A stretch of DNA of 64,000 bases from Actinomycetota bacterium (GCA_030017835.1 JASEGU010000005.1:5593-69592); one strand, 5' to 3'. Positions 1 through 52,161 are shown, counted from the stretch's first letter. The notes: generated by a model not told the origin, from the sequence alone. Program-made: numbers and translations.

Positions 1-795
1 CCTTGGAGGCAGCCGGAGAGCTGCACCCTTATTTGTTCCTGCTGCTCAGCCGGAAAGACGTCTATTATACGGTTGATGCTCTGAGCGGCGTCTTGGGTGT
101 GGAGAGTGGCAAAGACCAAGTGGCCGGTCTCGGCGGCCGTTAGGGCTATCTTTATCGTCTCTAAATCTCTCATCTCACCGATCAGAATGACGTCTGGGTC
201 TTGGCGAAGGACGTGCTTTAAAGCGTTGGCAAAAGATTTGGTATCTGAGCCGACCTCTCTCTGGTTGACCATGCACCTCTTGTGTTGGTGCAAGAATTCT
301 ATGGGGTCTTCTACCGTCATAATATGATCTGTCCGGGTGTCGTTGATGATATTGATGAGTGAGGTCAAGGTGGTCGTCTTGCCGCTTCCGGTCGGCCCGG
401 TAACCAGTATGAAACCTTTTCGCCTCTTGGCAAGCTCGGCCAAGTGGGCGGGAAGACCAAGCTGCTCTAAGGTCAACGCCTCATGGGAGATCATCCTGAA
501 GGCCGCGCCCAAGCTGTCCCGTTGATAGTAGGCATTTACCCTAAAGCGGGCCTTGCCCGGAATTCCGTGGGAGAAATCGAGCTCCCATTGGGATTCCAAG
601 ATCATCCTCTGTTTGTCGGTGATGATGCCATAGATCATCTCCTTGATGGCATCCGGAGTCAACTTCCCGCTCCCCTCTAGGGGCGTCAAATTGCCGTTTA
701 TCCGGGTGGCCGGAGGAAATCCGGCGCTTAAATGGAGATCGGAAGCATTGGTTTCAATAAGTTTTACAAGCAATGAAGTCAGTTGGTCCGCTATT
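1..795 (-). CDS. pilT: Type IV pilus retraction ATPase PilT (partial; 3' end runs off the window)
   Basis: Minus-strand translation reads ADQLTSLLVKLIETNASDLHLSAGFPPATRING...GFILVTGPTGSGKTTT...DPDVILIGEMRDLETI...ETGHLVFATLHT, with Walker A, Asp box and His box. It is absent from the ORF track because there is no stop in the window and no ATG/GTG/TTG start. The only start candidate at good spacing from the GGGGTGA SD is ATA at 793-795. Confidence 0.85.
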
Positions 796-824
796 TCTTA
801 TCACCCCTTCAAATTCAAATAAAA

Positions 825-2479
825 TTATATTATAACCCTCATTACCTCTTCTATCGAGGTTAAGCCCAGCTTCACCTTCTCGAGGCCATCCTCCTTTAAG
901 GTCATCATGCCTTCGCTTACGGCCACCTTCTTTATCTCTTCGGAGCTTGTCCTCATCACGGCGAGCCTTTGGACCTCCTCGCTCATGATCATGAACTCAA
1001 AAAGACCGATGCGCCCCCTATAACCCATGTTGTTGCACTTGTTGCAACCGATAGCCTTATATGCCTTGAGCTTGGTCTTGGCCGAAAGCCCAAAGTATTT
1101 TTTGAGCTTGCTGTCGACCGTATACTCCTTTTTGCAGGCATCGCAGAGACGGCGGGTCAAACGCTGGGCGAGGACGCTGTCCAGAGCCGATGTTATAAGA
1201 AAGGGCTCGATGCCCATCTCGATTAGGCGGGTGACAGCCGAGGGGGCATCGTTGGTGTGCAGGGTGGATAAGACCAGGTGGCCGGTGAGGGCCGATTCGG
1301 TGCTTATCAGAGCCGTCTCGCGATCGCGGATCTCGCCGACCATAATAATGTCGGGGTCGGCTCGAAGGATGGAGCGCAGACCGCTTGCGAAGGTCAAGCC
1401 CGCTTTGACGTTGATCTGCATCTGATTTATCCGGTTGAAACGGTATTCTACCGGATCCTCGATGGTCACGATGTTCTTTTCAGGCGTGTTTAAGATGTTC
1501 AAGACGGCATAAAGGGTGGTCGATTTACCAGAGCCGGTTGGACCTGTAACCAGGATCTCGCCGTATGGTTTGGAGAATGACTGGGTGAATTTGGCGAGAG
1601 TATCTGGAAGGAAACCGAGGTCGGGCAGGGTTATGACGTTGCCTTCCTTTCGCAAGATCCTAAGGATCATGTTTTCACCGAAGGCCGATGGGATGGTTAC
1701 GGCCCTAAAATCTACTTTGGCGTCGCCGACCGTAAGTTCAAAGCGGCCGTCCTGCGGCTTTCTCGTCTCGGCGATGTCCATGGAAGACATAATCTTTAGG
1801 CGTGAAATGAGAGCCGATTGAAGATTTTTGGGCGAGCGCATCGTCTCGACCATTATGCCATCTATGCGCGTCCTTGTCCTAAGATCGTCCTCCATCGGCT
1901 CGAAGTGGACGTCGCTCGCCCCATCATTTACCGCCTGATTCAAGACGAGGTTTATCAGTTTTACGACCGGAGCCTCTTTGGCGATCTCTTTGAGTTCGCT
2001 TAAGGCCGCGCCCTTATCCTTATCCTCCTCTTCGGCGCCGAACTTGCCCAAGTGATAATACTTGCTTATGGCCGAGAAGAGGTCTTGCTCCCTAACCAAT
2101 ATGGTCTTTATATTGTAGCCGGTAAGTATCCTGATATCATCTAAGGCAAATACATTATCCGCATCCGAAACGGCGACAACCAGCCCGCCGGTGCCATCAA
2201 AGGCTACGGGCAGAGCCATGTACTTCCTGGCCATGTCTTCACCGATGGTCATGGCTGCTGCGGTATCGACCTTAAAATCGCTAAGGTCCACCAAGGCTTC
2301 GCCGTTTTCATCCAAAGAACCTCTTGGGGCGCTCCTTCTTTCCAAAAGGCCCCTCTCGACCATGACTATTTCTAGACCCACGCCTCGCTCCAGGCTCTCC
2401 GCTCTTATCTCCTTGGCCTCATCTTCACCGATAACGTTCTGGAAGACGAGAGAATCAAGAAAGGTATCTTCTTGAGCCA

Positions 2480-2480
<1 letters not shown>
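825..2480 (-). CDS. pilB: Type IV pilus assembly ATPase PilB/GspE family, paralogue 2 (551 aa)
   Basis: Carries PQDGRF, Walker A GPTGSGKSTT, ADPDIIMVGEIRD, LTGHLVLSTLHTND and the C-terminal tetracysteine CDACK...CNKCNNMGYRGR. Its ATG overlaps the upstream pilB stop (ATGA at 2478-2482). Confidence 0.9.
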
Positions 2481-4165
<1,685 letters not shown>

Positions 4166-13699: not shown

Positions 13700-15022
13700 T
13701 CATTTGCCGCGCCTCTGGCCGTCACGTCTCTTTAACCAATCGGCATATAGGCGCCCCTCCAGTCCAGAGCTTGACGGATGATAGTATTTTACCTCCTTCA
13801 GCTCATCGGGCATATAATTTTGATCGACAAAATTATTCGGATAATTGTGCGGATACTTATAGCCCTGACCAAATTTCATCTCTTTGGCTCCAGAGTAACC
13901 CGCCTCTTTAAGGTGATTTGGCACATCCAGAGCTCCGTATCTCTCCTGAGCCCTCTCGCCTTCCATCAGAGCCAGAGTCACCGAATTGCTCTTAGGAGAA
14001 AGGGATAGATAGAGAGCGGCGTGGGCCAGATTGAGTTTGGCCTCGGGGAGACCAACCACGTTTAGCGCATCAAAGGCCGAGACGGCCACTTCAAGAGCGC
14101 GCGAGTTAGCAAGCCCGATATCTTCGGATGCTAGTATTATCATCCTTCTTGCGATAAATTTGGGATCTTCTCCGGCCTTGAGCATCGCGGTAAGCCAATG
14201 AATGGCGGCGTCTGGATCAGAGCCCCTGATGCTCTTGATGAAGGCCGATATGTTATCGTAGTGGACATCAAGGCCTTTGCCGTAGTAGCTCTTCCTTTCG
14301 GGAATCAGGCTGAGGATTAAGTCCTTACCCACCACCACCTTACCCTTTGCGCCCTTTTCGGCCAGAAGAATGGCCGCCTCGAGAAGATTTAGGGCAGTCC
14401 GGCCGTCGCCACCCGCCATATCGGCTATTGTCTCGATGGCTTCGCCCTCAAAGCTTACATCGCCCTCTCCTCCTTCCAATTTGAGGGCCCTTCTTAGAAT
14501 CGCCCCCACGGCCTGGCTGGAGAGAGGCTCGAAGCGAAAGACCCAGGAGCGCGAGATCAAGGGAGGATTGACTTCAAAATAGGGATTTTCGGTCGTCGCC
14601 CCGATCAAGGCGATGGTTCCGTCCTCGATGACGGGAAGGAGGATGTCCTGTTGAGCCTTGTTGAACCTATGGATCTCATCGATGAAGAGGATCGTCCTCT
14701 TCGACTCAGCCTCAGCAAGAGCTCTGGCCTCATCGATTATCTTTCTCATCTCAGCGACGCCTGCGCTGACTGCGCTTATCTTCCTGAAATGGGATTTGGT
14801 GATATTTGAGATGATCTCAGCAAGCGTGGTCTTGCCTGTGCCAGGCGGTCCCCAGAATACGACGGACCTTATGCCGTCCTCGGCTATCATCGTTGCGAGC
14901 GGCGCGCCTTTGGATATGATCTTCTCTTGACCGAAGAAGTCGTCTAGTCTCCTTGGGCGCATTCTGCTCGCAAGCGGTTCAAGGGCGAACGAATTGAGGT
15001 GAGAGGTTTTATCTTGATCCAT
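13700..15022 (-). CDS. rarA: Replication-associated recombination protein A (RarA/MgsA AAA+ ATPase)
   Basis: Motifs MRPRRLDDFFGQEKI, GPPGTGKTTLA and IDEIHRFNKAQQD, plus the MgsA C-terminal domain. The ORF track extends it to 15160, but the 46-aa extension has no RarA-like sequence, so I chose the start at MDQDK. Confidence 0.85.
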   Translation of the reverse strand: MDQDKTSHLNSFALEPLASRMRPRRLDDFFGQEKIISKGAPLATMIAEDGIRSVVFWGPPGTGKTTLAEIISNITKSHFRKISAVSAGVAEMRKIIDEARALAEAESKRTILFIDEIHRFNKAQQDILLPVIEDGTIALIGATTENPYFEVNPPLISRSWVFRFEPLSSQAVGAILRRALKLEGGEGDVSFEGEAIETIADMAGGDGRTALNLLEAAILLAEKGAKGKVVVGKDLILSLIPERKSYYGKGLDVHYDNISAFIKSIRGSDPDAAIHWLTAMLKAGEDPKFIARRMIILASEDIGLANSRALEVAVSAFDALNVVGLPEAKLNLAHAALYLSLSPKSNSVTLALMEGERAQERYGALDVPNHLKEAGYSGAKEMKFGQGYKYPHNYPNNFVDQNYMPDELKEVKYYHPSSSGLEGRLYADWLKRRDGQRRGK

Positions 15023-15249
15023 AAGAGACTCATACTGGTGGAGAATAGAGGAGGAGGCTCCGCCATGCCGTTTGAAACGACCCTTTTTGAACCCGAGGCC
15101 CAAAAAGGTGGGTGCCCTGCCAAGCACCTTGAAAGTCCTCAAGCATTGAGGCATGTTCAACGTACCCGGACCTAAGGCTCCCTACTGTGAGTGTTGGTTC
15201 AAATTAAGCGTCGCATCCACGCACATCGCAGAACCCCCATACTAGATTA

Positions 15250-22020: not shown

Positions 22021-25000
22021 TTATTCGACTTTGAGCAGACCTTTGGGGTAGATGGGCTGATTTATCATCGAGAGGAGTTCGTCTTCACCACTCATCATAA
22101 CCCAGTCCTTAAAGCTGGCAAAGAGGTCCTTTTCGTCAACGCCCTCTTCGAACCTTACCGAATCCGAGAGAGAGAGTTTCATCGAGTGATTCTTGAGTCT
22201 TATGACCCTGTCGCCCCGGCTTCCAACGATCTCAAGGAGACCGATCTCTTCGAATATCTTAAGCCCTGCATATATCCCCGATTCGCTCAAAAATTTGCTG
22301 CCGGTCGCCTCCAGCTCGCTCAAGATATCGCAGTTTCCTGCCTCGATACTTCCTGAAGTAGAAGATAGGTTCTTTAGGGTCAGATAGAGATCGGTAAGAC
22401 TCTTTCTGGAAGGGGCCATCGACTCCAAGATGAAGCGATTGATCTTGGCGTCATCCTCGCCGAACAGGAGGTGGATGTCGGCCCGCTCGCCGTCCCTGCC
22501 CGCTCGGCCACTCTCCTGATTGTACTCGATGAAACTGAAGGGCATATGATAGATGAAGATGTCGCTTATGTCCGGGATGTTGACTCCTTCACCGAAAGCG
22601 CTGGTGGAGACGACCACCGAAATGTCCCCCCGCTTGAATCTGGCCTCGATTTCATGCCTGGTTGCGGCATCAAGCCCCGCGTTATAGTAGGCCGTTCGAT
22701 CCTTTAAAGCTGGAAGGTTATCTCTCAGAAAGGAGGCTATTTTAACGCTCTGCTCCCGGCTGTTGACATAAATTATGGACTTATTGCCTCCGGTCCTCTT
22801 TGAAAGAAAATTCCTGATATAATCGTCCTTCTTCTTTATTCCCCTCTTGTCCACCAGCTTTAAGTTTTCCCTTATGAAGGGATCTATTACCAAACGCTCA
22901 ATCCCCAGAGTGTCGATTATCTCCCTTGCCACTTTTTCGCCGGCCGTAGCCGTCAAGGCCAAGATTAGAGGATCTTTTAAATTTTTGGCCATCTGCTTGA
23001 GGCGGGAGTAGAGCGGACGATGAAGCTCGGATGAGGTGCTTACGTGGTGAGCCTCATCGACAACAAAAAAACCGATCTTCTTTGAGAGCACTTGAAACTG
23101 ATCCATATTGTGATGGAGGAACTCTGGAGTCGTCAGGGCGATGTGGGCCGCTCCGGCAAAAAGCGCCGAAAATATCGCCTCCCTCTCCTCGAAATCGATG
23201 TCACCAGAGAGACGAACGACCCCGAGCCCTATCTTTGAGAACTCCTCTTGAAGATAGTTTAATTGGTCGTTTATGAGCGAACGCAAGGGGTAGAGGATTA
23301 TGGATATCTTGTCCTCCTTAATAGCTCGAAGAGCCGAGAATATGTGGAAGATGGCTGATTTTCCCCGCCCCGTTCCCATGATGACCAGGGTATTTTTGCC
23401 CTCTTTTAGCAGGCTGATGGCCTCCCTCTGTTTGGCAAATAGCTCCTTTCCGCTAAGCAAGATTTCTGCAAGTGATTTAATGAGCTCATCTTCGCTTAAA
23501 TCTGCAAGACCAGCAAAGGTGAGCCCGTGCTTAAGTGCTCCTTCTTTCCTTAAGGGTGCATCCTTTTTGACCAGGATGTTTACTCCAAGATTCTTGTCCC
23601 CGCCTCCGGTTACCTCGGTTATCTTTACCTTGTAAGGCACCCCCGAATCTATAGCGGCGGCCAAATGCTTGGAGATGGCCGCCTTAAGAAAGCCGATTTG
23701 GGCTCCCCGCCCGTCCACAATCTTGATGGCGCTGGGGTCGAAGGAATTATTCTCATCCCTAATCAACTTGAGATCTTCGCCCGGAGTGAGCGCTTTGATG
23801 GTCTCCTGGCGACCCTCGAATGTCACCCCAACCGCCTTGGTATAGAATGAATCGGAGTCGATGATGTTTCGATGGGGATCATCCTCGAGCACTTCGGACG
23901 AGCGCAAAAAAAGCTCTTTTAGAAAATTATCGCCTAAAGTCTCTTTTTTGAGATAATCGACCAGATGAAGTTGGGGGGAAACGTTTTCGTTCCATTCATT
24001 TTTGACGAGCCCGCAGACTAAGTCGGCCCCGGCCAAACTATCGGAGTTGAACGAATCGAACTTATCCTTGTGATTGAACGATATCCCGGAAAGTGACGGG
24101 CTTCTCCCACCCCCCCCACTTGGGTGAGCGGCTATCTTGAATGATAGATGCCTCTTATCGCTTCCAACATAACTTGACCCCTCTAGAGATGCGGCCCTCA
24201 ACCGAAAAATGGGCGGGGGATTGCCCACGCCAAATGGGGAGAGCATTTCAAGTTCCTCAAGGAGCTCAAGCGATATATCTGAAGAATCTATCCTTAGATC
24301 GATAGCGAGGCGAGGGATGAGATCGTCTTGACTCAGCCTCTCTTTGGCTATCCGGTTGATCCGCTCCTTAAAATCCTCAATCAGCTCCTCTTTGATCTTT
24401 AAGCCGGCGGCTCCGGCGTGCCCGCCGAAAGTCTCCAGGATATCCTCGCAGCCTGTCAAAGCTTCGAAAAGGTTGAAGGAGGGGATGCTGCGGCCGCTGC
24501 CAACAGCCAGACCGTCCTTTAGGGTTAGAAGAAAGGTGGGACGCTTATATCGATTGGCAAGGCGTGAGGCGACTATCCCCTTGACCCCCTCGTGCCAATC
24601 GGCTGAGGCGAGAACTATCACCAATTCTTTATCCAAATCCAGCTCTTTGGCCATGGAGAAGACCTCGGCCGTGATCGTCTCCTCTATCTTACGCCTCTCT
24701 TTATTCCTTCCATCGATTCGCTTTGCAAGCTCAATCGATTCGTCCAAGTCGCTTGAGAGAAGGAGTTTTACGCATTTGGTGGCATCGGCCACCCTTCCGG
24801 CTGCATTTAAGCGGGGGACAAGAAAATAGGCGGCGTCTTCGGCCGAGACCTTATCCGCCTTGAGCGAGGCGATCTGCATAAGAGCCCTAAGGCCGGGTTT
24901 GCCGCTAGGCTTAAGTCTATTAAGCCCCTCTTTGACCATGACCCTGTTCTCCCCAAGGAGGGGGACCATATCTGCCACCGTCCCCAGAGCCACCAGGTCA

Positions 25001-25713
25001 AGATGGTTTAAGATATCATAATCTTTCTCTGGGAGCTTCTGGGCCAGAGCCGAAAGGAGTTTGAAGACGACGCCGACGCCGGCAAGATTTCGCATTGGAT
25101 GATCTGGGCCATCCTTTTTGGGATTTATGACGGCATAGGCTTTGGGGAGGCTTATCCCGGGCTCGTGATGATCGGTGATTATTACCGAAAGACCAAGATC
25201 ATTAGCGTAATCAACCTCCTCTATGGCCGAAATGCCGGTATCGACCGTCAAGATTATTGAGACGCCCGACTCCTTCAAACGCTTTAGAGCGGACGCGCTC
25301 AGCCCATAGCCCTCTTTAAAGCGGCTTGGAATATAGAAGTTGACCTCGGCCCCAAGGTCACGAAGGACCCTTACGGCCAGAGCCGCGGCGGTTATGCCAT
25401 CGACGTCAAAATCTCCAAAGACGGCTATGGGCTCGCCCTTGGAGATGGCTTCAGCTAAACGGGTGGCCGCGGCCTGGACGCCTTCTAACAGAAAGGGATC
25501 AAGAAGGGATGAGAGGCTGGGAGATAAAAAGCCAAAGGCCGCACCGGCTGAGGTGATTCCCCTTGCCGCAAGAAGGCTGGCAAGATGGATGGATACGGAG
25601 AGTTCTTTAGAGAGCTTTAGAGCAACGGTTTCATCGAAACCCTTAAATGACCATATGTAACCACCCGCAGATTGAGCGGTCCGGTCATCATCGAAGGATT
25701 CTTGCAAGGACAA
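22021..25713 (-). CDS. recJ: RecJ exonuclease - HIRAN-like - RecQ-family helicase fusion protein (1230 aa)
   Basis: aa 1-590 is RecJ (DFDVDG, ITDHHEP, GGHAGAAG, OB-fold region). aa ~620-716 is a HIRAN-like module (AVGVTFEGRQ...LIRDENNSFDPSAIKIV...IGFL). aa ~755-1095 is an SF2 helicase with GTGRGKS, DEAH, LTATA and the RecQ-type QESGRAGRDG. aa 1096-1230 is a wHTH-like tail. The reading frame is uninterrupted. Confidence 0.85.
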   Translation of the reverse strand: MSLQESFDDDRTAQSAGGYIWSFKGFDETVALKLSKELSVSIHLASLLAARGITSAGAAFGFLSPSLSSLLDPFLLEGVQAAATRLAEAISKGEPIAVFGDFDVDGITAAALAVRVLRDLGAEVNFYIPSRFKEGYGLSASALKRLKESGVSIILTVDTGISAIEEVDYANDLGLSVIITDHHEPGISLPKAYAVINPKKDGPDHPMRNLAGVGVVFKLLSALAQKLPEKDYDILNHLDLVALGTVADMVPLLGENRVMVKEGLNRLKPSGKPGLRALMQIASLKADKVSAEDAAYFLVPRLNAAGRVADATKCVKLLLSSDLDESIELAKRIDGRNKERRKIEETITAEVFSMAKELDLDKELVIVLASADWHEGVKGIVASRLANRYKRPTFLLTLKDGLAVGSGRSIPSFNLFEALTGCEDILETFGGHAGAAGLKIKEELIEDFKERINRIAKERLSQDDLIPRLAIDLRIDSSDISLELLEELEMLSPFGVGNPPPIFRLRAASLEGSSYVGSDKRHLSFKIAAHPSGGGGRSPSLSGISFNHKDKFDSFNSDSLAGADLVCGLVKNEWNENVSPQLHLVDYLKKETLGDNFLKELFLRSSEVLEDDPHRNIIDSDSFYTKAVGVTFEGRQETIKALTPGEDLKLIRDENNSFDPSAIKIVDGRGAQIGFLKAAISKHLAAAIDSGVPYKVKITEVTGGGDKNLGVNILVKKDAPLRKEGALKHGLTFAGLADLSEDELIKSLAEILLSGKELFAKQREAISLLKEGKNTLVIMGTGRGKSAIFHIFSALRAIKEDKISIILYPLRSLINDQLNYLQEEFSKIGLGVVRLSGDIDFEEREAIFSALFAGAAHIALTTPEFLHHNMDQFQVLSKKIGFFVVDEAHHVSTSSELHRPLYSRLKQMAKNLKDPLILALTATAGEKVAREIIDTLGIERLVIDPFIRENLKLVDKRGIKKKDDYIRNFLSKRTGGNKSIIYVNSREQSVKIASFLRDNLPALKDRTAYYNAGLDAATRHEIEARFKRGDISVVVSTSAFGEGVNIPDISDIFIYHMPFSFIEYNQESGRAGRDGERADIHLLFGEDDAKINRFILESMAPSRKSLTDLYLTLKNLSSTSGSIEAGNCDILSELEATGSKFLSESGIYAGLKIFEEIGLLEIVGSRGDRVIRLKNHSMKLSLSDSVRFEEGVDEKDLFASFKDWVMMSGEDELLSMINQPIYPKGLLKVE

Positions 25714-25752
25714 CTTGGGTCTCCAGACTAACCGCCATTGTTGGAAGGGGTC

Positions 25753-26106
25753 TTAAGATTTCTCGGTCTCCACTTTAGGCGCCGGCGCCGGCGCCGGCTC
25801 CGGCGGACAGGCCTCTATAAGTTTTGCGGCGTATTCCTTCTCTTTTGCCCGCAGAAGGGCTCTCTCTTTCTCTTCTTGCCTCTTTTTCGTCCTCTTTTTG
25901 GTCTTGATGAGAGCGGTTATGCCGGCCAGCATCCCCATCGCCCCTCCGACCATAACCGAGATGACGATGACCAGGGCCAAAGAGACCTCTACGCTGCCCA
26001 GACCATAGGATATTGTGACGGCGGCGGCGTTCTCTATGGCCAAGATGGTTACAAAAAGGATCAAGACAAGGATCAAAGCTAGTGAAATGAGCACCTTTTC
26101 CTCCAA
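25753..26106 (-). CDS. LapA-domain (DUF1049) small membrane protein
   Basis: Two TM helices followed by a K/R/E-rich tail and a PAPAPAP stretch. Confidence 0.6.
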   Translation of the reverse strand: MEEKVLISLALILVLILFVTILAIENAAAVTISYGLGSVEVSLALVIVISVMVGGAMGMLAGITALIKTKKRTKKRQEEKERALLRAKEKEYAAKLIEACPPEPAPAPAPKVETEKS

Positions 26107-33688: not shown

Positions 33689-36409
33689 CTAATCCACCTC
33701 ATCGGATTTGACGTAGATGCGGGCGTCCACGACCGCGCAGCCTCTCCCCTTATCGAAGACCATGACCGGATTCATCTCGGCCTGATCTATCTCGGGAAAA
33801 TCTGAGATCATGACCGAAAAACGAAGAATGATGTCGCAAAAGGAAATGATATCCCTCTCCTTCGAGCCGCGCCAGCCGGTAAGGAGCCGGCTCCCTTTAA
33901 GCTGAGCGAGCATCTTCTTCGGATCTATATCGGTCAAGGGATGGATGGCAAAGGCCACATCCTTTATGAGTTCGACGTAGGTTCCGCCAAGACCCAGCAT
34001 TATGAGAGGCCCAAAGGTTGGATCAAGCGACATCCCAACTATCACCTCTTGACCATCGGCCAGCATGGGCTGGATTATCACTCCCATCATCTCATCCAGT
34101 TGACCCAGAGACTTCATCTTTTCTCTTATCTTCTTGAAGGCCTCTTTGACCTCCTTTTCGTTCTTCAGGTTCAAGACTATCCCGCCGACATCGGTCTTAT
34201 GGGTTATGGTATCGGAACGGATCTTCATGACGACCGGAAAACCGATCTCTTTGGCTAAGGTGGCGGCCTCCTCCTCGGAGGCCGCCACACCAGTTTTGGC
34301 TATAGGTATGCCATAGGCCTCAAGTAACTCTGCGGCGACTTCTGGCATGAGCCAATTGCCTTCCTTGGAGGAGACAGCCATCTTCTCCAAAAAGCGGGCT
34401 CTTATCCCTTCCGCGTTGATATCATCGAATTTGACGACCTTGCCCTCTTCGGCCTCCTTATACTTGGCATATTGATATGCTCTGGCCAGGGCCCCGACCG
34501 CATTTTCCGGAAAGATGAAGGAGGGTACGTAGCGCGCTTCATCGATCTTGAGATCGACTGAAGGGGAACGGGACATCATGAAGCAGGCGATGACAGGTTT
34601 TTCCCCTTTATACCCCTCCATAGCCGCCTTTACTTCGGCCGCCACCTCTTCGGGGTGGGTCACAAGCGGGGGTATATAGATCATGATGACGGAATCTATC
34701 CCCTTGTCTTCAAGGATGACCTTTAAGGCCTTCCTGTATGAAGCGGGCTCGGCCGAGGCGATCATGTCGACCGGATTGGTTACGGCCGCCTCCTTGGGCA
34801 AGAACTCCCTGAGTTTCTTTTGTGTCTCTTGGCTCAAGGGCGGGGCCACCAGACCCCAGCCCTCACAGGCGTCGGCGGCCAAAACCCCCGGCCCGCCCGC
34901 GTTGGTCAAGACGGCCACCCGCGGCCCCTTGGGAAGCGGTTGATTTACCAGAACTTCGGCCACGTTAAACATGTTTTCGATGGTGCTCACCCTGATGACG
35001 CCCGACTTTTTGAACATGGCCTCGACAGCTACTTCAGAGGCGGCCAGCGCCCCGGTATGTGAGGAGGCGGCCCTAGCCCCCACGGCCGAGCGGCCAGATT
35101 TAACCGCGATGATCGGTTTTTTGCGCGAGACGCGCCTTGCGATCTGGCTAAACCTTCTGGAATTACCGAATGACTCCAGATAGAGCAGGATGACATCGGT
35201 CTCCTCGTCATCCTCGAAGAACTCGATCAGATCATTGCTGGATATGTCGAGGCGGTTTCCGATGCTGACAAACTTTGAGATGCCAAGGTTCATGTCCTTG
35301 GAATAATCGAGAAGAGCAAGGCCGAGCGCCCCACTCTGAGAGCCGATACTAAGACGTCCTTTGGGCGGTCTTATCGGTGAAAAGGTGGCGTTTATCTGGA
35401 CATCGGCATCACCGTTAAAGATGCCCAAACAGTTCGGCCCAATGACCCGCATGCCGTAGGAGAGGACCTTCTCTTTGAGGAGGCGCTCCCTCTCTTTGCC
35501 CTCACCATCCGACTCGCCGAAGCCGGCCGAGATTATGACCAGTCCCGCCACGCCCTTTTTGCCGCATTCATCTACCACATCGATGACGCGTTTGGCCGGA
35601 ACGACTATCACAGCAAGATCGATGTTGCTGGGGATCTCGGTGACAGAGGGATATGATAAGACGCCGGCAACTGATGAGGCGTTGGGGTTGACCGGAAAGA
35701 CCGGGCCGTTAAAAGGATACTCCAAGAGGTTGCGAAAGACGGCTCCCCCGACGCTTTCCGGATCGCGCGAAGCTCCGATGACGGCCACGCTCCTTGGATA
35801 GAGGAGCCTTTTAACCCCGGCCGACCTTGCCATGTGCTCCCTAATTAGCTGTCTCTTTTCGAACTCCTCCTGCTCTTCTAAGTCTATCTCTATTACGTAG
35901 ACGCCTTCATGGAAGTTCTTGTCAAGCTTAAACCCGCTCTCGTCGAATATCTTGAGCATCCTGGTATTTTCGGGCAGAACATTTGCGACGAACTTCTTGA
36001 TTTTGAATTTATTTGCGGCCCCTGCCAACTGCTCGATGAGGGCGGTTCCGACCCCGCGGACCTGGAGCCTATCTTCGACCACGAAGGAAATCTCGGCCGT
36101 TTTGCCATCGCCTATTATGTCCCACCTGCCGACTCCAACTATCCGTTCGGCCTCACCTTCGCCGATGGTGGCCACGAAAGCCACCCTCTTTGGGGGATTG
36201 ACCTCGGTAAAATAGGCGAGCTCCTCGGCGGTTATCTTTTCTTTGGCGTAATGAAAGCGGAAATATCTGGTCTGAGGACTCAAACGATAGAAGAATTCTT
36301 CCAGCTTTCTTTTGTCTTCCGGTGCAATTGCTCTGATGCGGAGGCTCTTGCCGTCCTGAAGTATGACCTCAAAGCCCATGTTCTCTTTGGGGGTTGCATA
36401 GACCGCCAT
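33689..36409 (-). CDS. GNAT acetyltransferase fused to an NDP-forming acyl-CoA synthetase-like region (Pat-type protein acetyltransferase, GNAT-first order)
   Basis: N-terminal GNAT (VEDRLQVRGVGTALIE), then CoA-binding and ligase-CoA domains (SVAVIGAS..., GPNCLGI) and a C-terminal ATP-grasp. I chose the start at the ATG behind the GGGAGAGGGAG SD. Confidence 0.8.
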   Translation of the reverse strand: MAVYATPKENMGFEVILQDGKSLRIRAIAPEDKRKLEEFFYRLSPQTRYFRFHYAKEKITAEELAYFTEVNPPKRVAFVATIGEGEAERIVGVGRWDIIGDGKTAEISFVVEDRLQVRGVGTALIEQLAGAANKFKIKKFVANVLPENTRMLKIFDESGFKLDKNFHEGVYVIEIDLEEQEEFEKRQLIREHMARSAGVKRLLYPRSVAVIGASRDPESVGGAVFRNLLEYPFNGPVFPVNPNASSVAGVLSYPSVTEIPSNIDLAVIVVPAKRVIDVVDECGKKGVAGLVIISAGFGESDGEGKERERLLKEKVLSYGMRVIGPNCLGIFNGDADVQINATFSPIRPPKGRLSIGSQSGALGLALLDYSKDMNLGISKFVSIGNRLDISSNDLIEFFEDDEETDVILLYLESFGNSRRFSQIARRVSRKKPIIAVKSGRSAVGARAASSHTGALAASEVAVEAMFKKSGVIRVSTIENMFNVAEVLVNQPLPKGPRVAVLTNAGGPGVLAADACEGWGLVAPPLSQETQKKLREFLPKEAAVTNPVDMIASAEPASYRKALKVILEDKGIDSVIMIYIPPLVTHPEEVAAEVKAAMEGYKGEKPVIACFMMSRSPSVDLKIDEARYVPSFIFPENAVGALARAYQYAKYKEAEEGKVVKFDDINAEGIRARFLEKMAVSSKEGNWLMPEVAAELLEAYGIPIAKTGVAASEEEAATLAKEIGFPVVMKIRSDTITHKTDVGGIVLNLKNEKEVKEAFKKIREKMKSLGQLDEMMGVIIQPMLADGQEVIVGMSLDPTFGPLIMLGLGGTYVELIKDVAFAIHPLTDIDPKKMLAQLKGSRLLTGWRGSKERDIISFCDIILRFSVMISDFPEIDQAEMNPVMVFDKGRGCAVVDARIYVKSDEVD

Positions 36410-36528
36410 ATCGTCTCCCTCTCCCTTTGTCTGCCTATCGCCTCGATAATTAATGGCCCAAACGGGCATCTATCTTTATATCGGCAAATATGAAAGAAAT
36501 GTGACTTACAAAAAGATTTGGGCTCTTT

Positions 36529-40947: not shown

Positions 40948-41976
40948 TTAGAATAGGGACTCGTTGCTGGCTGAATATCCGATTCCCAGGTGGTCATAGG
41001 CTTTCTCGGTGGCTACCCGGCCACGCGGCGTACGCATCAAAAAACCCAGTTGCAGAAGATAGGGCTCGTAGACATCCTCGATCGTACCAGGCTCTTCGCC
41101 CAGAGCGGTTGCCAGAGTCGTCAGACCGACGGGCCTTCCCTTGAACTTCTCGATCAGAACCAGAAGCAGCTTCTGGTCCAGCTTGTCCAGCCCCTCCTTG
41201 TCCACCTCGAAGAAGGAGAGAGCTTCGGTGGCGACCACCTGGTCTATGGTGCCGTCGCATTTGACTTGAGCGTAATCACGAACCCTCTTTAGGAGCCTAT
41301 TTGCTATCCTGGGCGTTCCGCGCGAACGTTTGGCGATCTCTTCGGCCCCACCGTCATCTATCCCTATGCAGAGTATGGAAGCGGAGCGGATGATTATCTC
41401 CTTCAGTTCGGAGGCCGCATAGTGATCAAGCCTGGCTTGGACGCCGAAGCGGTCGCGTAGTGGTGAGGTTATAAGGCCGGTTCTTGTCGTCGCTCCGACC
41501 AGAGTGAAATGTGGGATATCGAGGCGCAGTGATCTTGCGCTCGGCCCCTTTCCGATGATTATATCGAGCTCGAAGTCCTCCATGGCTGGGTAGAGAATCT
41601 CCTCGACCGACCTGTTTAAGCGATGTATCTCATCGATGAAGAGGGCGTCGAAGGGCTCAAGATTGGTCAAAATGGCCGCCAGATCTCCCGCCCGCTCCAA
41701 GGCCGGGCCCGAGGTTATCTTGATGTTTGTGCCCATCTCATTTGCGATAATGGTGGCCAGGGTCGTCTTGCCGAGTCCCGGCGGGCCCGATAGAAGGACG
41801 TGATCTAGAGCCTCTTTTCTATTTCTGGCAGCCTCAATATAGATGCTAAGCTGTTTTTTTGCGCTCTCCTGGCCGATGAATTCGCTAAGAAGCTTAGGGC
41901 GCAGGCTTCTGTCATACTCTATCTCTTCTTCGGTCAGGTGACCGCCCAGCATCCTATCTTCCAAACCGTTCTCCAA
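40948..41976 (-). CDS. ruvB: Holliday junction branch migration ATPase RuvB
   Basis: Motifs [19 protein letters not shown] and [11 protein letters not shown]. Confidence 0.97.
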
Positions 41977-42008
41977 TCCGGCTCAATGGATCTTTTAAGC
42001 CTCGGCGG

Positions 42009-42596
42009 CTAGCTCTTGGCAAGCCTCTTTAGCGCCGCCTTTATCATATCCTCGACCGAAGCATCCTTGCGCACTTCGTTCTTGAGCGCAATGGATGCTT
42101 CGGTCTGAGAGTAGCCCAGATTAACCAATGCCTCTTTTGCCTTCAGGTAATCGGAGTCTTCGTAAATCCCGCTCTCTCCAATGAAAGATGCGGGCACCTC
42201 TACCCTCTCCTTCATCTCCAAAATCAGCCGCTCGGCCACCTTCTTGCCGATGCCTGGAATGCTGACGATGAGGTCAATATCGCCTAAAATTATGGCCCCT
42301 GTAAGATCAGCCAGAGAGAGGCTGCTCAATATGGATAGGGCAAGTTTTGGCCCAACCTTTGACACCGAGATGAGTTTCATAAACATCTCTTTTTCAACCC
42401 GGCTCGAAAAGCCAAAGAGCTGCATGATGTCTTCTCTGATGTGAAGGTGGACAAATAGGGAGGCTTGGGCGCCGACATCTTTTAGGTCCCCATGGGTGGC
42501 CCCCGATATGAAGAGCTCATAGCCGACCCCGCCGGTCAATAAGACGACCCTGTCCAAGGACTTCTCTTTTATGATCCCTTCCAGATAGGAGATCAT
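42009..42596 (-). CDS. ruvA: Holliday junction DNA helicase subunit RuvA
   Basis: N-terminus MISYLEGII...GGVGYEL, with HhH motifs IPGIGKKVAERL. I chose the start at the internal Met. Confidence 0.93.
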   Translation of the reverse strand: MISYLEGIIKEKSLDRVVLLTGGVGYELFISGATHGDLKDVGAQASLFVHLHIREDIMQLFGFSSRVEKEMFMKLISVSKVGPKLALSILSSLSLADLTGAIILGDIDLIVSIPGIGKKVAERLILEMKERVEVPASFIGESGIYEDSDYLKAKEALVNLGYSQTEASIALKNEVRKDASVEDMIKAALKRLAKS

Positions 42597-42640
42597 CTTC
42601 CTCCCGATCTTAATCTCCACCCATGTGGGGGTTTTAAGGA

Positions 42641-47286: not shown

Positions 47287-47370
47287 TGGTGCGGGTGAGA
47301 GGAGTTGAACCTCCACGCCTTGCGGCACATGCTCCTAAGGCATGCGTGTCTGCCATTCCACCACACCCGC
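47287..47370 (-). tRNA. tRNA-Leu (anticodon TAG), long variable arm, CCA encoded
   Basis: Hand-folded: acceptor GCGGGTG/CACCCGC, anticodon stem CATGC/GCATG with loop CTTAGGA, T-loop GGTTCAACTCC. Confidence 0.9.
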
Positions 47371-47398
47371 AAATCTGATCGACGGTGATAAAGATAAG

Positions 47399-47474
47399 TG
47401 GTGGGCCGTACAGGATTCGAACCTGTGACCTTGGGATTAAGAGTCCCCTGCTCTACCAACTAAGCTAACGGCCC
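47399..47474 (-). tRNA. tRNA-Lys (anticodon CTT), CCA encoded
   Basis: Hand-folded: acceptor GGGCCGT/ACGGCCC, anticodon loop CTCTTAA, T-arm ACAGG-TTCGAAT-CCTGT. Confidence 0.9.
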
Positions 47475-47510
47475 GCATTTATATGCATGGATCATCTTTA
47501 GCTAAAACTC

Positions 47511-47587
47511 TGGCGCGCCTGGAGGGATTCGAACCCCCGACCTGCGGATTAGAAGTCCGATGCTCTATCCAGCTGAGCTACAGGCGC
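47511..47587 (-). tRNA. tRNA-Arg (anticodon TCT), CCA encoded
   Basis: Hand-folded: acceptor GCGCCTG/CAGGCGC, anticodon loop CTTCTAA, T-loop TTCGAAT. Confidence 0.88.
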
Positions 47588-47662
47588 ATCTGGTCAAACT
47601 TTTGCTGGTTGAAATTTACCCAACCAAGCGCTTTCAGCACTCACCCATCGCTTCGGCGATGT

Positions 47663-47737
47663 TGGAGCGGGAGACGGGACTCGAACCCGCGACCAACAGC
47701 TTGGAAGGCTGTGACTCTACCACTGAGTTACTCCCGC
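47663..47737 (-). tRNA. tRNA-Gly (anticodon TCC), CCA encoded
   Basis: Hand-folded: acceptor GCGGGAG/CTCCCGC, anticodon stem ACAGC/GCTGT with loop CTTCCAA. Confidence 0.9.
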
Positions 47738-47749
47738 TTAAAAAGATGA

Positions 47750-47827
47750 TGGGGTGGCTGAGGGGACTCGAACCCCCGGCCTTTGGAGCCACAGTCCAAC
47801 GCTCTAACCAACTGAGCTACAGCCACC
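47750..47827 (-). tRNA. tRNA-His (anticodon GTG) with encoded G-1 and CCA
   Basis: Hand-folded: an extra 5' G opposite discriminator C, acceptor GTGGCTG/CAGCCAC, anticodon loop CTGTGGC. Confidence 0.9.
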
Positions 47828-47867
47828 ATCTAAGAGTCAATCTCTGAAATCTGGCCAGGTTTATTCC

Positions 47868-47946
47868 TGGTCGGGGTGGAGGGATTCGAACCCCCGGCCT
47901 CCTGCTCCCAAAGCAGGCGCGCTAAACCAAGCTGCGCTACACCCCG
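47868..47946 (-). tRNA. tRNA-Pro (anticodon TGG), CCA encoded
   Basis: Hand-folded: acceptor CGGGGTG/CACCCCG, anticodon stem CCTGC/GCAGG with loop TTTGGGA. Confidence 0.9.
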
Positions 47947-51815: not shown

Positions 51816-52161
51816 TGGTGGAGGTGCGGAGAATCGAACTCCGGTCCTAGAGCAACTCAGGTCAAGCCTTCTACGAGCGTATCCGATCTAATTTTTCGCT
51901 CCAAAGGCCCCGGTCGGCAAAGATCCTTTGGAGTTATCCCGTAAATTTCCCCTTAAGCCTACGGGAGTCGGCTTAAAAGTAGCTCACTTGCGACGTCCAT
52001 TTAAGACCGTGAGCTTTTCTTAAAGGACGTGGTTGCTATTTAAGCAGCCAGTGCGTAGTTATTATCGGCGTTTGGTTTAAACGCTTTGGCGGTTTAACGA
52101 GGAACCAAAACCTCGGCTCGCTTCCCTCATCCCGTCACTTCAGTCGAATCCATTCACCCCC
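51816..52161 (-). ncRNA. ssrA: tmRNA (SsrA)
   Basis: The 5' end is GGGGGTGAATGGATTCGAC. The 3' tRNA-like end is GGACCGGAGTTCGATTCTCCGCACCTCCACCA. An internal tag frame ends GCC GAT AAT AAC TAC GCA CTG GCT GCT TAA (..ADNNYALAA stop). It is adjacent to smpB. Confidence 0.93.

Follow-up and report, generated by a model that had tools for sequence, protein, structure and literature searches.

A conserved RecJ-HIRAN-RecQ-like helicase fusion encoded at the recJ locus: a candidate single-chain helicase-nuclease

I analyzed a 64,000-nucleotide stretch of DNA from an Actinomycetota bacterium (GCA_030017835.1 JASEGU010000005.1:5593-69592), hereafter called the window. It was found that the window has a long open reading frame (ORF) in which a RecJ exonuclease, a HIRAN domain, a RecQ-like helicase, and a winged-helix (WH) tail are joined in a single polypeptide (Table 1). 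The gene order around it is tgt, an HD gene, secD, secF, a LapA-like gene, the fusion gene, relA/spoT, dtd, a metallo-beta-lactamase hydrolase gene, hisS, and aspS. Thus, the gene lies at the recJ position downstream of secDF, as claimed in the original prediction, which had been made from the sequence of the same DNA alone. The uninterrupted frame fusing all the parts was also confirmed, the strand, which had been left unstated, being the minus strand; the plus-strand translation of the same interval is full of stop codons. Every motif quoted in that prediction was located: DFDVDG (residues 101-106), ITDHHEP (179-185), GGHAGAAG (430-437), GTGRGKS (780-786), DEAH (886-889), LTATA (920-924), and QESGRAGRDG (1066-1075). 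The first possible start codon is a TTG at 25711-25713 on the minus strand, and the fusion ORF has no in-frame ATG before the DHH motif, which is the first RecJ catalytic motif. The start position is the same in the closest homologue, P0002 (69% identity). No separate recQ or recJ gene was found among the window ORFs scanned.

Table 1. Coordinates of the fusion gene and of the parts of its product
Feature	Residues	Window position	Strand	Evidence and remarks
RecJ-HIRAN-helicase-WH fusion ORF		22021..25713	minus	1230 codons plus stop codon at 22021-22023; ORF listing, translation
GGAGA Shine-Dalgarno sequence		25720..25724	minus	6 nucleotides upstream of the TTG start
RecJ, predicted 5'-3' single-stranded DNA (ssDNA) exonuclease	44-585	23959..25584	minus	TIGR00644, Pfam, residue mapping onto 5f54, Foldseek
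DHH	96-245			Pfam
DHHA1	365-458			Pfam
RecJ_OB (PF17768)	471-586			Pfam, 76.6 bits
Conserved helical linker	596-621	23851..23928	minus	Alignments, model; pattern 'F..LF....E.L...Y..I.D..SF.TK'
HIRAN domain	622-716	23566..23850	minus	PF08797, phmmer against HLTF structures, alignment, model
Flexible linker, then N-terminal helices of the helicase	717-754	23452..23565	minus	Model; predicted local distance difference test score (pLDDT) of the flexible linker ~42
RecQ-like superfamily 2 (SF2) helicase core	755-1095	22429..23451	minus	Pfam, NCBIfam, alignments, PDB searches, Foldseek
DEAD	761-928			Pfam
Helicase_C	962-1075			Pfam
C-terminal tail: end of helical hairpin, winged helix, long helix	1096-1230	22024..22428	minus	AlphaFold2 (AF2) tail model, Foldseek, alignments
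C-terminal motif LLxxIN(Q/R/K)PIYP	1214-1223	22045..22074	minus	L1214, N1218, P1220, I1221, and P1223 invariant

The RecJ half is complete and is predicted to be a 5'-3' ssDNA exonuclease. The NCBIfam equivalog model TIGR00644 (recJ) gave 544 bits against a cut-off of 396.9, residues 44-585 corresponding to model positions 5-544 of 546; together with Pfam and structure comparison, this bears out the full RecJ with DHH, DHHA1, and OB domains that had been proposed. The metal-ligand motifs (D101, D103, D105, D158, D181-H182-H183, D248, and G430-G431-H432) show no variation in two alignments of full-length relatives, with 23 and 50 sequences reaching down to 39% identity. By mapping onto the structure 5f54, the catalytic metal-ligand group was aligned with Asp79, Asp135, His159, and His160 of Deinococcus radiodurans RecJ (DrRecJ), and R131, R307, S406, and R408, all four invariant, were aligned with Arg109, Arg280, Ser371, and Arg373 of its 5'-phosphate pocket, which determines the 5'-3' polarity; the roles of these DrRecJ residues are described in PMC4846377. 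When compared with solved structures by sequence, the N-terminal half of the protein matches the RecJ proteins of Staphylococcus aureus, D. radiodurans, and Thermus thermophilus. In a Foldseek search against the PDB, RecJ structures came first (8y30, 5f55, and 2zxo; E = 1e-46 to 1e-38), spanning 565-588 columns, and RecQ-family cores came next. The RecJ part stops at the OB domain, which closes the RecJ ring around ssDNA; it is without the C-terminal SSB-binding domain of DrRecJ (PMC4846377). In addition, the OB domain has a Gly/Ser-rich insertion, AAHPSGGGGRSPSLSG (residues ~529-548, window ~24070-24130, pLDDT below 50), which among the 23 aligned homologues is full-length only in the window protein and P0002 and is shorter in P0006.

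The helicase core has motifs 0 (Q762), I (TGRGKS, 781-786), Ia (PLRxLxxDQ), Ib (TTPE), II (DEAHH, 886-890), III (ATA), IV, V (TSAFGEG), and VI (NQxxGRxGR, 1065-1073). In both alignments, Q762, the sequences of motifs I, Ia, Ib, III, V, and VI, and the DExHH form of motif II are invariant. The best 36 PDB sequence matches of the helicase are all RecQ, WRN, BLM, RECQ1, RECQ4, or RECQ5, and the structural matches agree. On the other hand, the closest NCBIfam model of the helicase, TIGR00614 (recQ_fam), gave 205.7 bits, just under its cut-off of 219.8, with model positions 14-347 of 470 matched. Neither alignment has a conserved Cys after motif VI, so the Zn subdomain is missing; a helical hairpin was modeled by AF2 at the place where it would be. 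No HRDC domain was matched by Pfam or NCBIfam, and the chain extends no further than the winged helix and the long helix. In Escherichia coli RecQ, a Trp and a Phe of the aromatic-rich loop couple ATP hydrolysis to unwinding. The corresponding loop after motif II of the window protein is DEAHHVSTSSELHRPLY, as compared to the canonical DEAHCxSxWGHDFRPEY; the Trp and Phe residues are replaced, and only the His, Arg, Pro, and Tyr residues are kept. The lack of a recognizable Zn/RQC/HRDC region noted in the original prediction was thus verified, as the Zn subdomain, the HRDC domain, and the canonical RQC features are all missing. Its term "RecQ-family helicase" holds for the RecQ-type motifs and for the nearest solved relatives, which are RecQ-family cores only, but the score below the recQ_fam cut-off, the missing Zn subdomain, and the degenerate loop call for the narrower term "RecQ-like".

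The segment between the two enzymes had been thought to have the layout of a HIRAN domain. It is indeed one: PF08797 (HIRAN) matched residues 622-696, scoring 39.4 bits when the full protein was searched and 43.6 bits with the segment alone, above the gathering cut-off of 24.7, and phmmer matched the segment directly to the HLTF HIRAN structures 2mzn, 4xzf, 5bnh, and 4s0n (E = 4e-4), aligning RDPNNPYDKNAIKV of HLTF to RDENNSFDPSAIKI of the window protein. The AF2 model predicts a fold of beta strands with two helices. The invariant residues of the domain are G629, V630, F632, R635, Q636, N656, D659, A662, and G674. Among them, N656 and D659 align with N91 and D94 in the "NNPYD" pocket of HLTF, while F658 aligns with HLTF Y93 at a position that varies across the family (F, H, Y, C, or V). 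To my knowledge, HIRAN domains are experimentally known only from eukaryotic fork remodelers. The HLTF domain reportedly binds the 3'-OH end of DNA via a conserved Asp residue. Its single-strand-binding cavity is bordered by Y72 and Y93 (PMC4666394), and the invariant F632 is probably the counterpart of Y72, as judged from the motif position alone. The conserved linker helix preceding HIRAN is part of the HIRAN-helicase module, because it is kept by relatives that have no RecJ part.

An AF2 model of residues 31-1230 was built on the 50-sequence alignment. The mean pLDDT is 88 and the predicted template modeling score is 0.62; the model is confident for all domains, and the low-confidence stretches are limited to two loops of the OB domain and the HIRAN-helicase linker. 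No Pfam match was found in the tail. When modeled alone, the tail folds into a winged helix and, after it, a long helix (pLDDT 84.7), and its best Foldseek matches are generic winged helix-turn-helix proteins (PadR, Fur, and MarR; E ~0.03). Foldseek alignments of the full model to bacterial RecQ catalytic cores cover ~520 columns and run through the RQC region, and the winged helix is predicted at the position equivalent to the RQC winged helix. The winged helix-turn-helix-like tail of the original prediction is thus supported at the level of the fold, without a specific RQC assignment. The C-terminal LLxxIN(Q/R/K)PIYP motif has a pLDDT of ~91 in the full-length model versus 50-64 in the isolated tail, which suggests that it packs against another domain. 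Since forms without RecJ keep the motif, it probably packs against the helicase or HIRAN and not against RecJ.

It was also considered whether the HIRAN-helicase part is an insertion into a long Bacillus-type RecJ, the tail being the RecJ C-terminal domain PF10141. This idea arose from the relative P0166, whose tail matches PF10141 with 27.8 bits. It was rejected because the window tail has no PF10141 match in Pfam, because only 7 of 17 tails match, and those weakly (best E = 0.0014), because a tail profile searched against the PDB gave no significant match, with S. aureus RecJ (8y30) not being found either, and because the tail stays with the helicase in the genes lacking RecJ.

How common is this fusion? 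A search of 5.8 billion proteins yielded at least 120 protein clusters with the full architecture, which is a lower bound. They are 1130-1282 residues in length, with 39-69% identity, 96-100% coverage, and all seven Pfam families, and PF08797 is carried by all of the top 120 homologues. The named sources are Coriobacteriia, Actinomycetota (including Ca. Oleimmundimicrobium), Peptococcaceae, Clostridia, and Bacillota, and the named full-length homologues are annotated just as "single-stranded-DNA-specific exonuclease RecJ". On a 2.8-Mb Coriobacteriia contig, the order is tgt-yajC-HD-secD-secF-[fusion]…relA-hisS. Because the synteny is conserved between this contig and the window, the fusion gene is the recJ orthologue, and a housekeeping gene, of these lineages. 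Four related loci were examined in all; the gene directly follows secD-secF in two of them and directly precedes apt-relA or relA in the other two. When the 5.8 billion proteins were searched with a tail profile, nothing but contig-end pieces of these fusions came back, which gave further taxon names and no new architecture. Across the searches, fragments are named from Eggerthellales, Atopobiaceae, and Olsenella. A contig scan with peptide patterns, which were too specific, returned a single locus of Eggerthellales UBA948.

The C-terminal half was also searched exhaustively with phmmer against 1.84 billion representatives at 50% identity, and the best 150 were scored with purpose-built hidden Markov models of the modules. 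RecJ, HIRAN, helicase, and tail are all present in 55 of these best 150 representatives; 31 lack HIRAN only, seven lack RecJ only, and 57 have shorter combinations. In many of the shorter entries, the match does not begin until the middle of the model, as would be the case for contig-end fragments. P0129, P0166, and P0176 were rejected as stand-alone forms; their starts are no more than 33 bases from the end of a contig, and therefore they are probably fragments. P0137 and the forms on long contigs were the only ones taken as truly stand-alone.

Several types of natural variants were found. HIRAN is missing from the fusions P0180 (L010:4570-7845), P0184, P0201, and P0224, in which the helicase is intact; the P0180 gene lies directly upstream of relA. 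P0179 (1215 residues) has ~170 residues without an identified domain where HIRAN would be. The genes for P0470 (L007:7001-9043, on a 3.4-Mb contig) and P0437 (L008:7001-8902, on a 0.76-Mb contig), which have no RecJ part, lie directly after secD-secF, the latter preceding apt-relA, and they look like in situ losses of the RecJ half. Related RecJ-less proteins are named from Eremiobacterota, Vulcanimicrobiaceae, Baltobacteraceae, and the cultured species Anoxybacter fermentans (P0396); P0461 and P0466 are further examples. The RecJ-less forms retain the linker helix, HIRAN, all helicase motifs, the tail, and the C-terminal INRPIYP. Several of them are labeled "single-stranded-DNA-specific exonuclease" by the Joint Genome Institute despite having no nuclease domain. 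P0137 (L005:265-2193) is encoded by a stand-alone HIRAN-helicase-WH gene with its own ribosome-binding site and an AT-rich upstream region. The HIRAN-helicase-WH part is an autonomous module. Downstream of the P0137 gene there are many small ORFs, including those for an HTH_3 protein and a DUF6075 protein, and the region looks like a mobile element. The HIRAN region of P0137 also matches the PADLOC candidate PDC-M03B with 42 bits. No relatives were found in viral contigs.

A clade of full-length proteins (P0239, P0243, P0248, P0253, P0258, and P0267) has a pseudo-helicase. Their RecJ motifs are intact and helicase motifs I (GTGRGKS), II (DEAH), and VI are lost, so that they are predicted to be ATPase-dead. 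P0239 and P0253 still have the HIRAN motifs, which are degenerate in the other members. The gene for P0243 (L009:6001-9585) occupies the same slot between secDF and apt-relA. Altogether, the variant forms look like orthologues that have lost different modules in different lineages.

As for the other genes of the window, secF is separated from the fusion gene by an ORF for a 117-residue LapA-type membrane-domain protein (PF06305, 47.7 bits; 25753-26106, minus strand), which is located 40 nucleotides upstream of the fusion start. Other recombination and replication-rescue genes belong to the same co-oriented housekeeping block as the fusion gene: rarA/mgsA (MgsA_C, AAA; 13700-15160, minus strand) and ruvA-ruvB (40948-42620, minus strand). 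A 926-residue protein (33689-36469, minus strand) has an N-terminal GNAT acetyltransferase domain followed by CoA-binding, succinyl-CoA-ligase-like, and ATP-grasp domains, as arranged in Pat-type protein lysine acetyltransferases. Six clustered tRNA genes (Leu, Lys, Arg, Gly, His, and Pro) and a tmRNA gene whose tag peptide is ADNNYALAA were found at 47287-47946 and 51816-52161 (minus strand). At 825-4165 (minus strand), there are two paralogous genes in tandem for T2SSE/MshEN secretion ATPases (551 and 561 residues).

What does the fusion protein do? The analysis established the domain identities, the intact and conserved catalytic motifs, the synteny-based orthology with recJ, and HIRAN-helicase-WH as an autonomous module; from these I infer the activities, their polarities, their coupling, and the role of HIRAN as follows. 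The product is probably a helicase-nuclease that resects the 5' strand at DNA ends, gaps, and stalled forks, and it would do in one chain what separate RecQ and RecJ do in the RecF pathway. HIRAN would dock on a free 3'-OH end, which could be that of a 3'-tailed break or that of a primer at a gap or fork, and thereby position the enzyme; it is proposed to recognize 3'-OH termini because the HLTF-equivalent N656 and D659 are invariant. The RecQ-like motor would load on the 3'-end strand and translocate 3' to 5' into the duplex, and the winged-helix tail may add duplex binding or strand separation. The displaced complementary strand would then offer its 5' end to the 5'-phosphate pocket of RecJ and be degraded processively in the 5' to 3' direction. 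Since a 3'-5' motor and a 5'-3' nuclease acting on complementary strands travel the same way along the duplex, the covalent fusion is geometrically coherent. RecJ degrades ssDNA 5'-3' from a 5'-phosphate end (PMC4846377), and if the ends are blunt or 3'-tailed, it needs RecQ, a 3'-5' helicase, to begin (Morimatsu and Kowalczykowski 2014, as summarized in PMC4846377). The covalent link would remove the dependence of RecJ on a separate RecQ. A further step is more doubtful: the protein might be an autonomous RecQ/RecJ-type motor in which HIRAN holds the 3'-OH end while the helicase moves away, so that the recombinogenic 3' strand is looped out and protected and the 5' strand is removed by RecJ, and Coriobacteriia and related anaerobes might use it as their main presynaptic nuclease-helicase.

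Some of the observations weigh against the resection enzyme. The helicase is RecQ-like and not a canonical RecQ; because the Zn subdomain, the HRDC domain, and the Trp and Phe of the aromatic-rich loop are missing, polarity and unwinding are extrapolated. The pseudo-helicase clade keeps RecJ and has lost Walker A, DEAH, and motif VI, so the module can be retained without motor activity. Since other orthologues have no HIRAN or no RecJ, the coupling is not obligatory across the family.

Other explanations were weighed. Adjacent recJ and helicase genes could have been merged into the long ORF by a chimeric assembly or by a frameshift error; this concern stems only from the probable metagenome assembly, and no support for it was found. 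The same continuous architecture occurs in the 120 or more independent clusters from many samples and sources and in the 55 representatives mentioned above, the conserved linker spans the junctions, and independent related contigs carry the gene in the same neighborhood. A chimeric join, a stop, or a frameshift, against which the original prediction had cautioned, does not agree with a frame that is continuous in more than 100 homologues, and such an error has practically no likelihood left; chance or a chimera is excluded by the conserved full architecture. It is also very improbable that the protein is an anti-phage defense or mobile-element helicase-nuclease related to DpdF, PsyrT/RqlH, or Cas3-like proteins. 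The PADLOC models of DpdF and PsyrT do match the helicase core with 214-228 bits, and the gene of the RecJ-less relative P0137 lies beside small HTH genes. However, the PADLOC matches cover the generic RecQ-like core only, the NCBIfam DpdF model gave 97.9 bits against a cut-off of 550, there are no partner genes in a locus that is a conserved housekeeping block, and neither relatives in viral contigs nor a full-length match in phage records was found.

Two readings accept the protein as a repair enzyme and assign its parts differently. In one, it is an HLTF-type fork remodeler acting primarily on stalled forks and not on ends or gaps: HIRAN captures the nascent leading-strand 3' end, the motor regresses the fork or unwinds the nascent lagging strand, and RecJ trims the lagging strand. 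HIRAN placed N-terminally to an SF2 motor is the layout of HLTF/Rad5. The HIRAN-dependent fork remodeling by HLTF is documented (PMC4666394), and at forks stalled by UV, the nascent lagging strand is degraded by RecQ and RecJ in E. coli (Courcelle and Hanawalt 1999, as cited in PMC4846377). The presence of rarA and ruvAB in the same chromosomal block also fits, in an arrangement that is generic in Firmicutes. However, the HLTF motor is a SNF2 translocase on double-stranded DNA and the motor here is RecQ-like, and many orthologues without HIRAN keep the RecJ-helicase pair. As the sequence does not separate fork from end and gap substrates, the fork remodeler overlaps with the resection enzyme more than it excludes it; as a distinct explanation, I regard it as rather unlikely. 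In the other, RecJ is the sole working enzyme, and HIRAN-helicase-WH is a non-motor accessory for DNA or partner binding that replaces the SSB-binding C-terminal domain of long RecJs and tethers or regulates the nuclease. This is what the pseudo-helicase clade would look like, as it keeps the module after the loss of the ATPase motifs; the RecJ part ending at OB without the DrRecJ C-terminal SSB-binding domain (PMC4846377) and the weak but recurrent PF10141 matches in the tails (7 of 17 tails, and that of P0166 with its 27.8 bits) also point this way. Nevertheless, every ATPase/helicase motif is invariant in the window protein and more than 100 relatives, which implies selection on catalysis, and HIRAN-helicase-WH persists as an intact enzyme without RecJ. 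Thus, the accessory role is disfavored for the window protein and has only a slim chance there, while it is plausible for the pseudo-helicase clade.

The resection enzyme can be compared to known systems. RecQ and RecJ are the textbook case of helicase-nuclease cooperation without a stable complex, and their coupling has been inferred mostly from genetics and mixing experiments. The RecQ-RecJ pairs of the RecF pathway (E. coli, D. radiodurans, and Bacillus subtilis RecQ/RecS with RecJ) share with the fusion the two predicted activities, the canonical recJ locus, and the expected 5'-strand resection task. In the fusion, however, they are covalently joined with HIRAN between them, the helicase has no Zn subdomain, HRDC, or intact aromatic-rich loop, and RecJ has no SSB-binding domain. 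The eukaryotic HLTF/Rad5 proteins (HIRAN-SNF2-RING) are alike in having HIRAN N-terminal to an SF2 motor and the "NNxxD" pocket motif, and they match directly by sequence; the fusion differs in that it is bacterial, its motor is RecQ-like and not SNF2, RING is absent, and a nuclease is attached. Human WRN likewise has a RecQ-type helicase and an exonuclease in one chain, and WRN cores are among the best structural matches. In contrast to the fusion, whose DHH-family RecJ nuclease would act 5'-3' on the displaced strand, the WRN exonuclease is DnaQ-like and acts 3'-5' on the tracked strand.

DNA2 (with BLM/Sgs1/WRN), AddAB, RecBCD, AdnAB, and HerA-NurA follow the same logic, a motor and a nuclease yielding 3' ssDNA for recombination, but they belong to unrelated families (superfamily 1 helicases with PD-(D/E)XK nucleases, or HerA-NurA), and none has RecJ, RecQ-like, or HIRAN modules. 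A protein of the DHH/RecJ fold is also partnered with a helicase in archaeal HAN-Hef and GAN-CMG (PMC5717133) and in eukaryotic Cdc45-MCM, although these associations are non-covalent and involve other helicase families, and Cdc45 is catalytically dead. Among RecQ-like helicases, RqlH keeps the tetracysteine Zn domain and, unlike the fusion, has no RecJ or HIRAN. The RqlH/PsyrT clade (Ordonez et al. 2012, cited in PMC5512222) has a RecQ-like core without HRDC, and the PADLOC PsyrT model matches the core of the fusion. No description of the fusion was found in the full-text literature searched, which is not proof for all literature, and the architecture is visible in domain databases. The searches returned only the two-protein RecQ-RecJ pathway, author names of the form "Hiran…", and eukaryotic HLTF work. 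The question in the original prediction of how widespread and well described the architecture is can thus be answered in part: the fusion is common, but no paper characterizing it was found. Each part belongs to a known family, and the new element is the covalent RecJ-HIRAN-RecQ-like-WH arrangement as a conserved housekeeping enzyme.

A conserved natural fusion is Rosetta-stone evidence that both activities work on the same DNA molecule simultaneously, and a single polypeptide is well suited for structural and single-molecule studies of coupled unwinding and degradation. HIRAN here belongs to a bacterial housekeeping repair enzyme and sits beside a different motor family, so that capture of the 3'-OH end can be tested as a general means of targeting motors to gaps and forks. 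The finding also concerns annotation, as full fusions are labeled just "RecJ" and some RecJ-less helicases are labeled as exonucleases. The hosts are Coriobacteriia (including entries named Eggerthellales, Atopobiaceae, and Olsenella) and anaerobic Firmicutes, among which natural domain-loss variants occur. If HIRAN does hold the 3'-OH end while the helicase moves away, these bacteria would have HIRAN-guided end and gap processing without a described counterpart, and the variants lacking HIRAN, lacking RecJ, or having a dead motor would be natural separation-of-function alleles.

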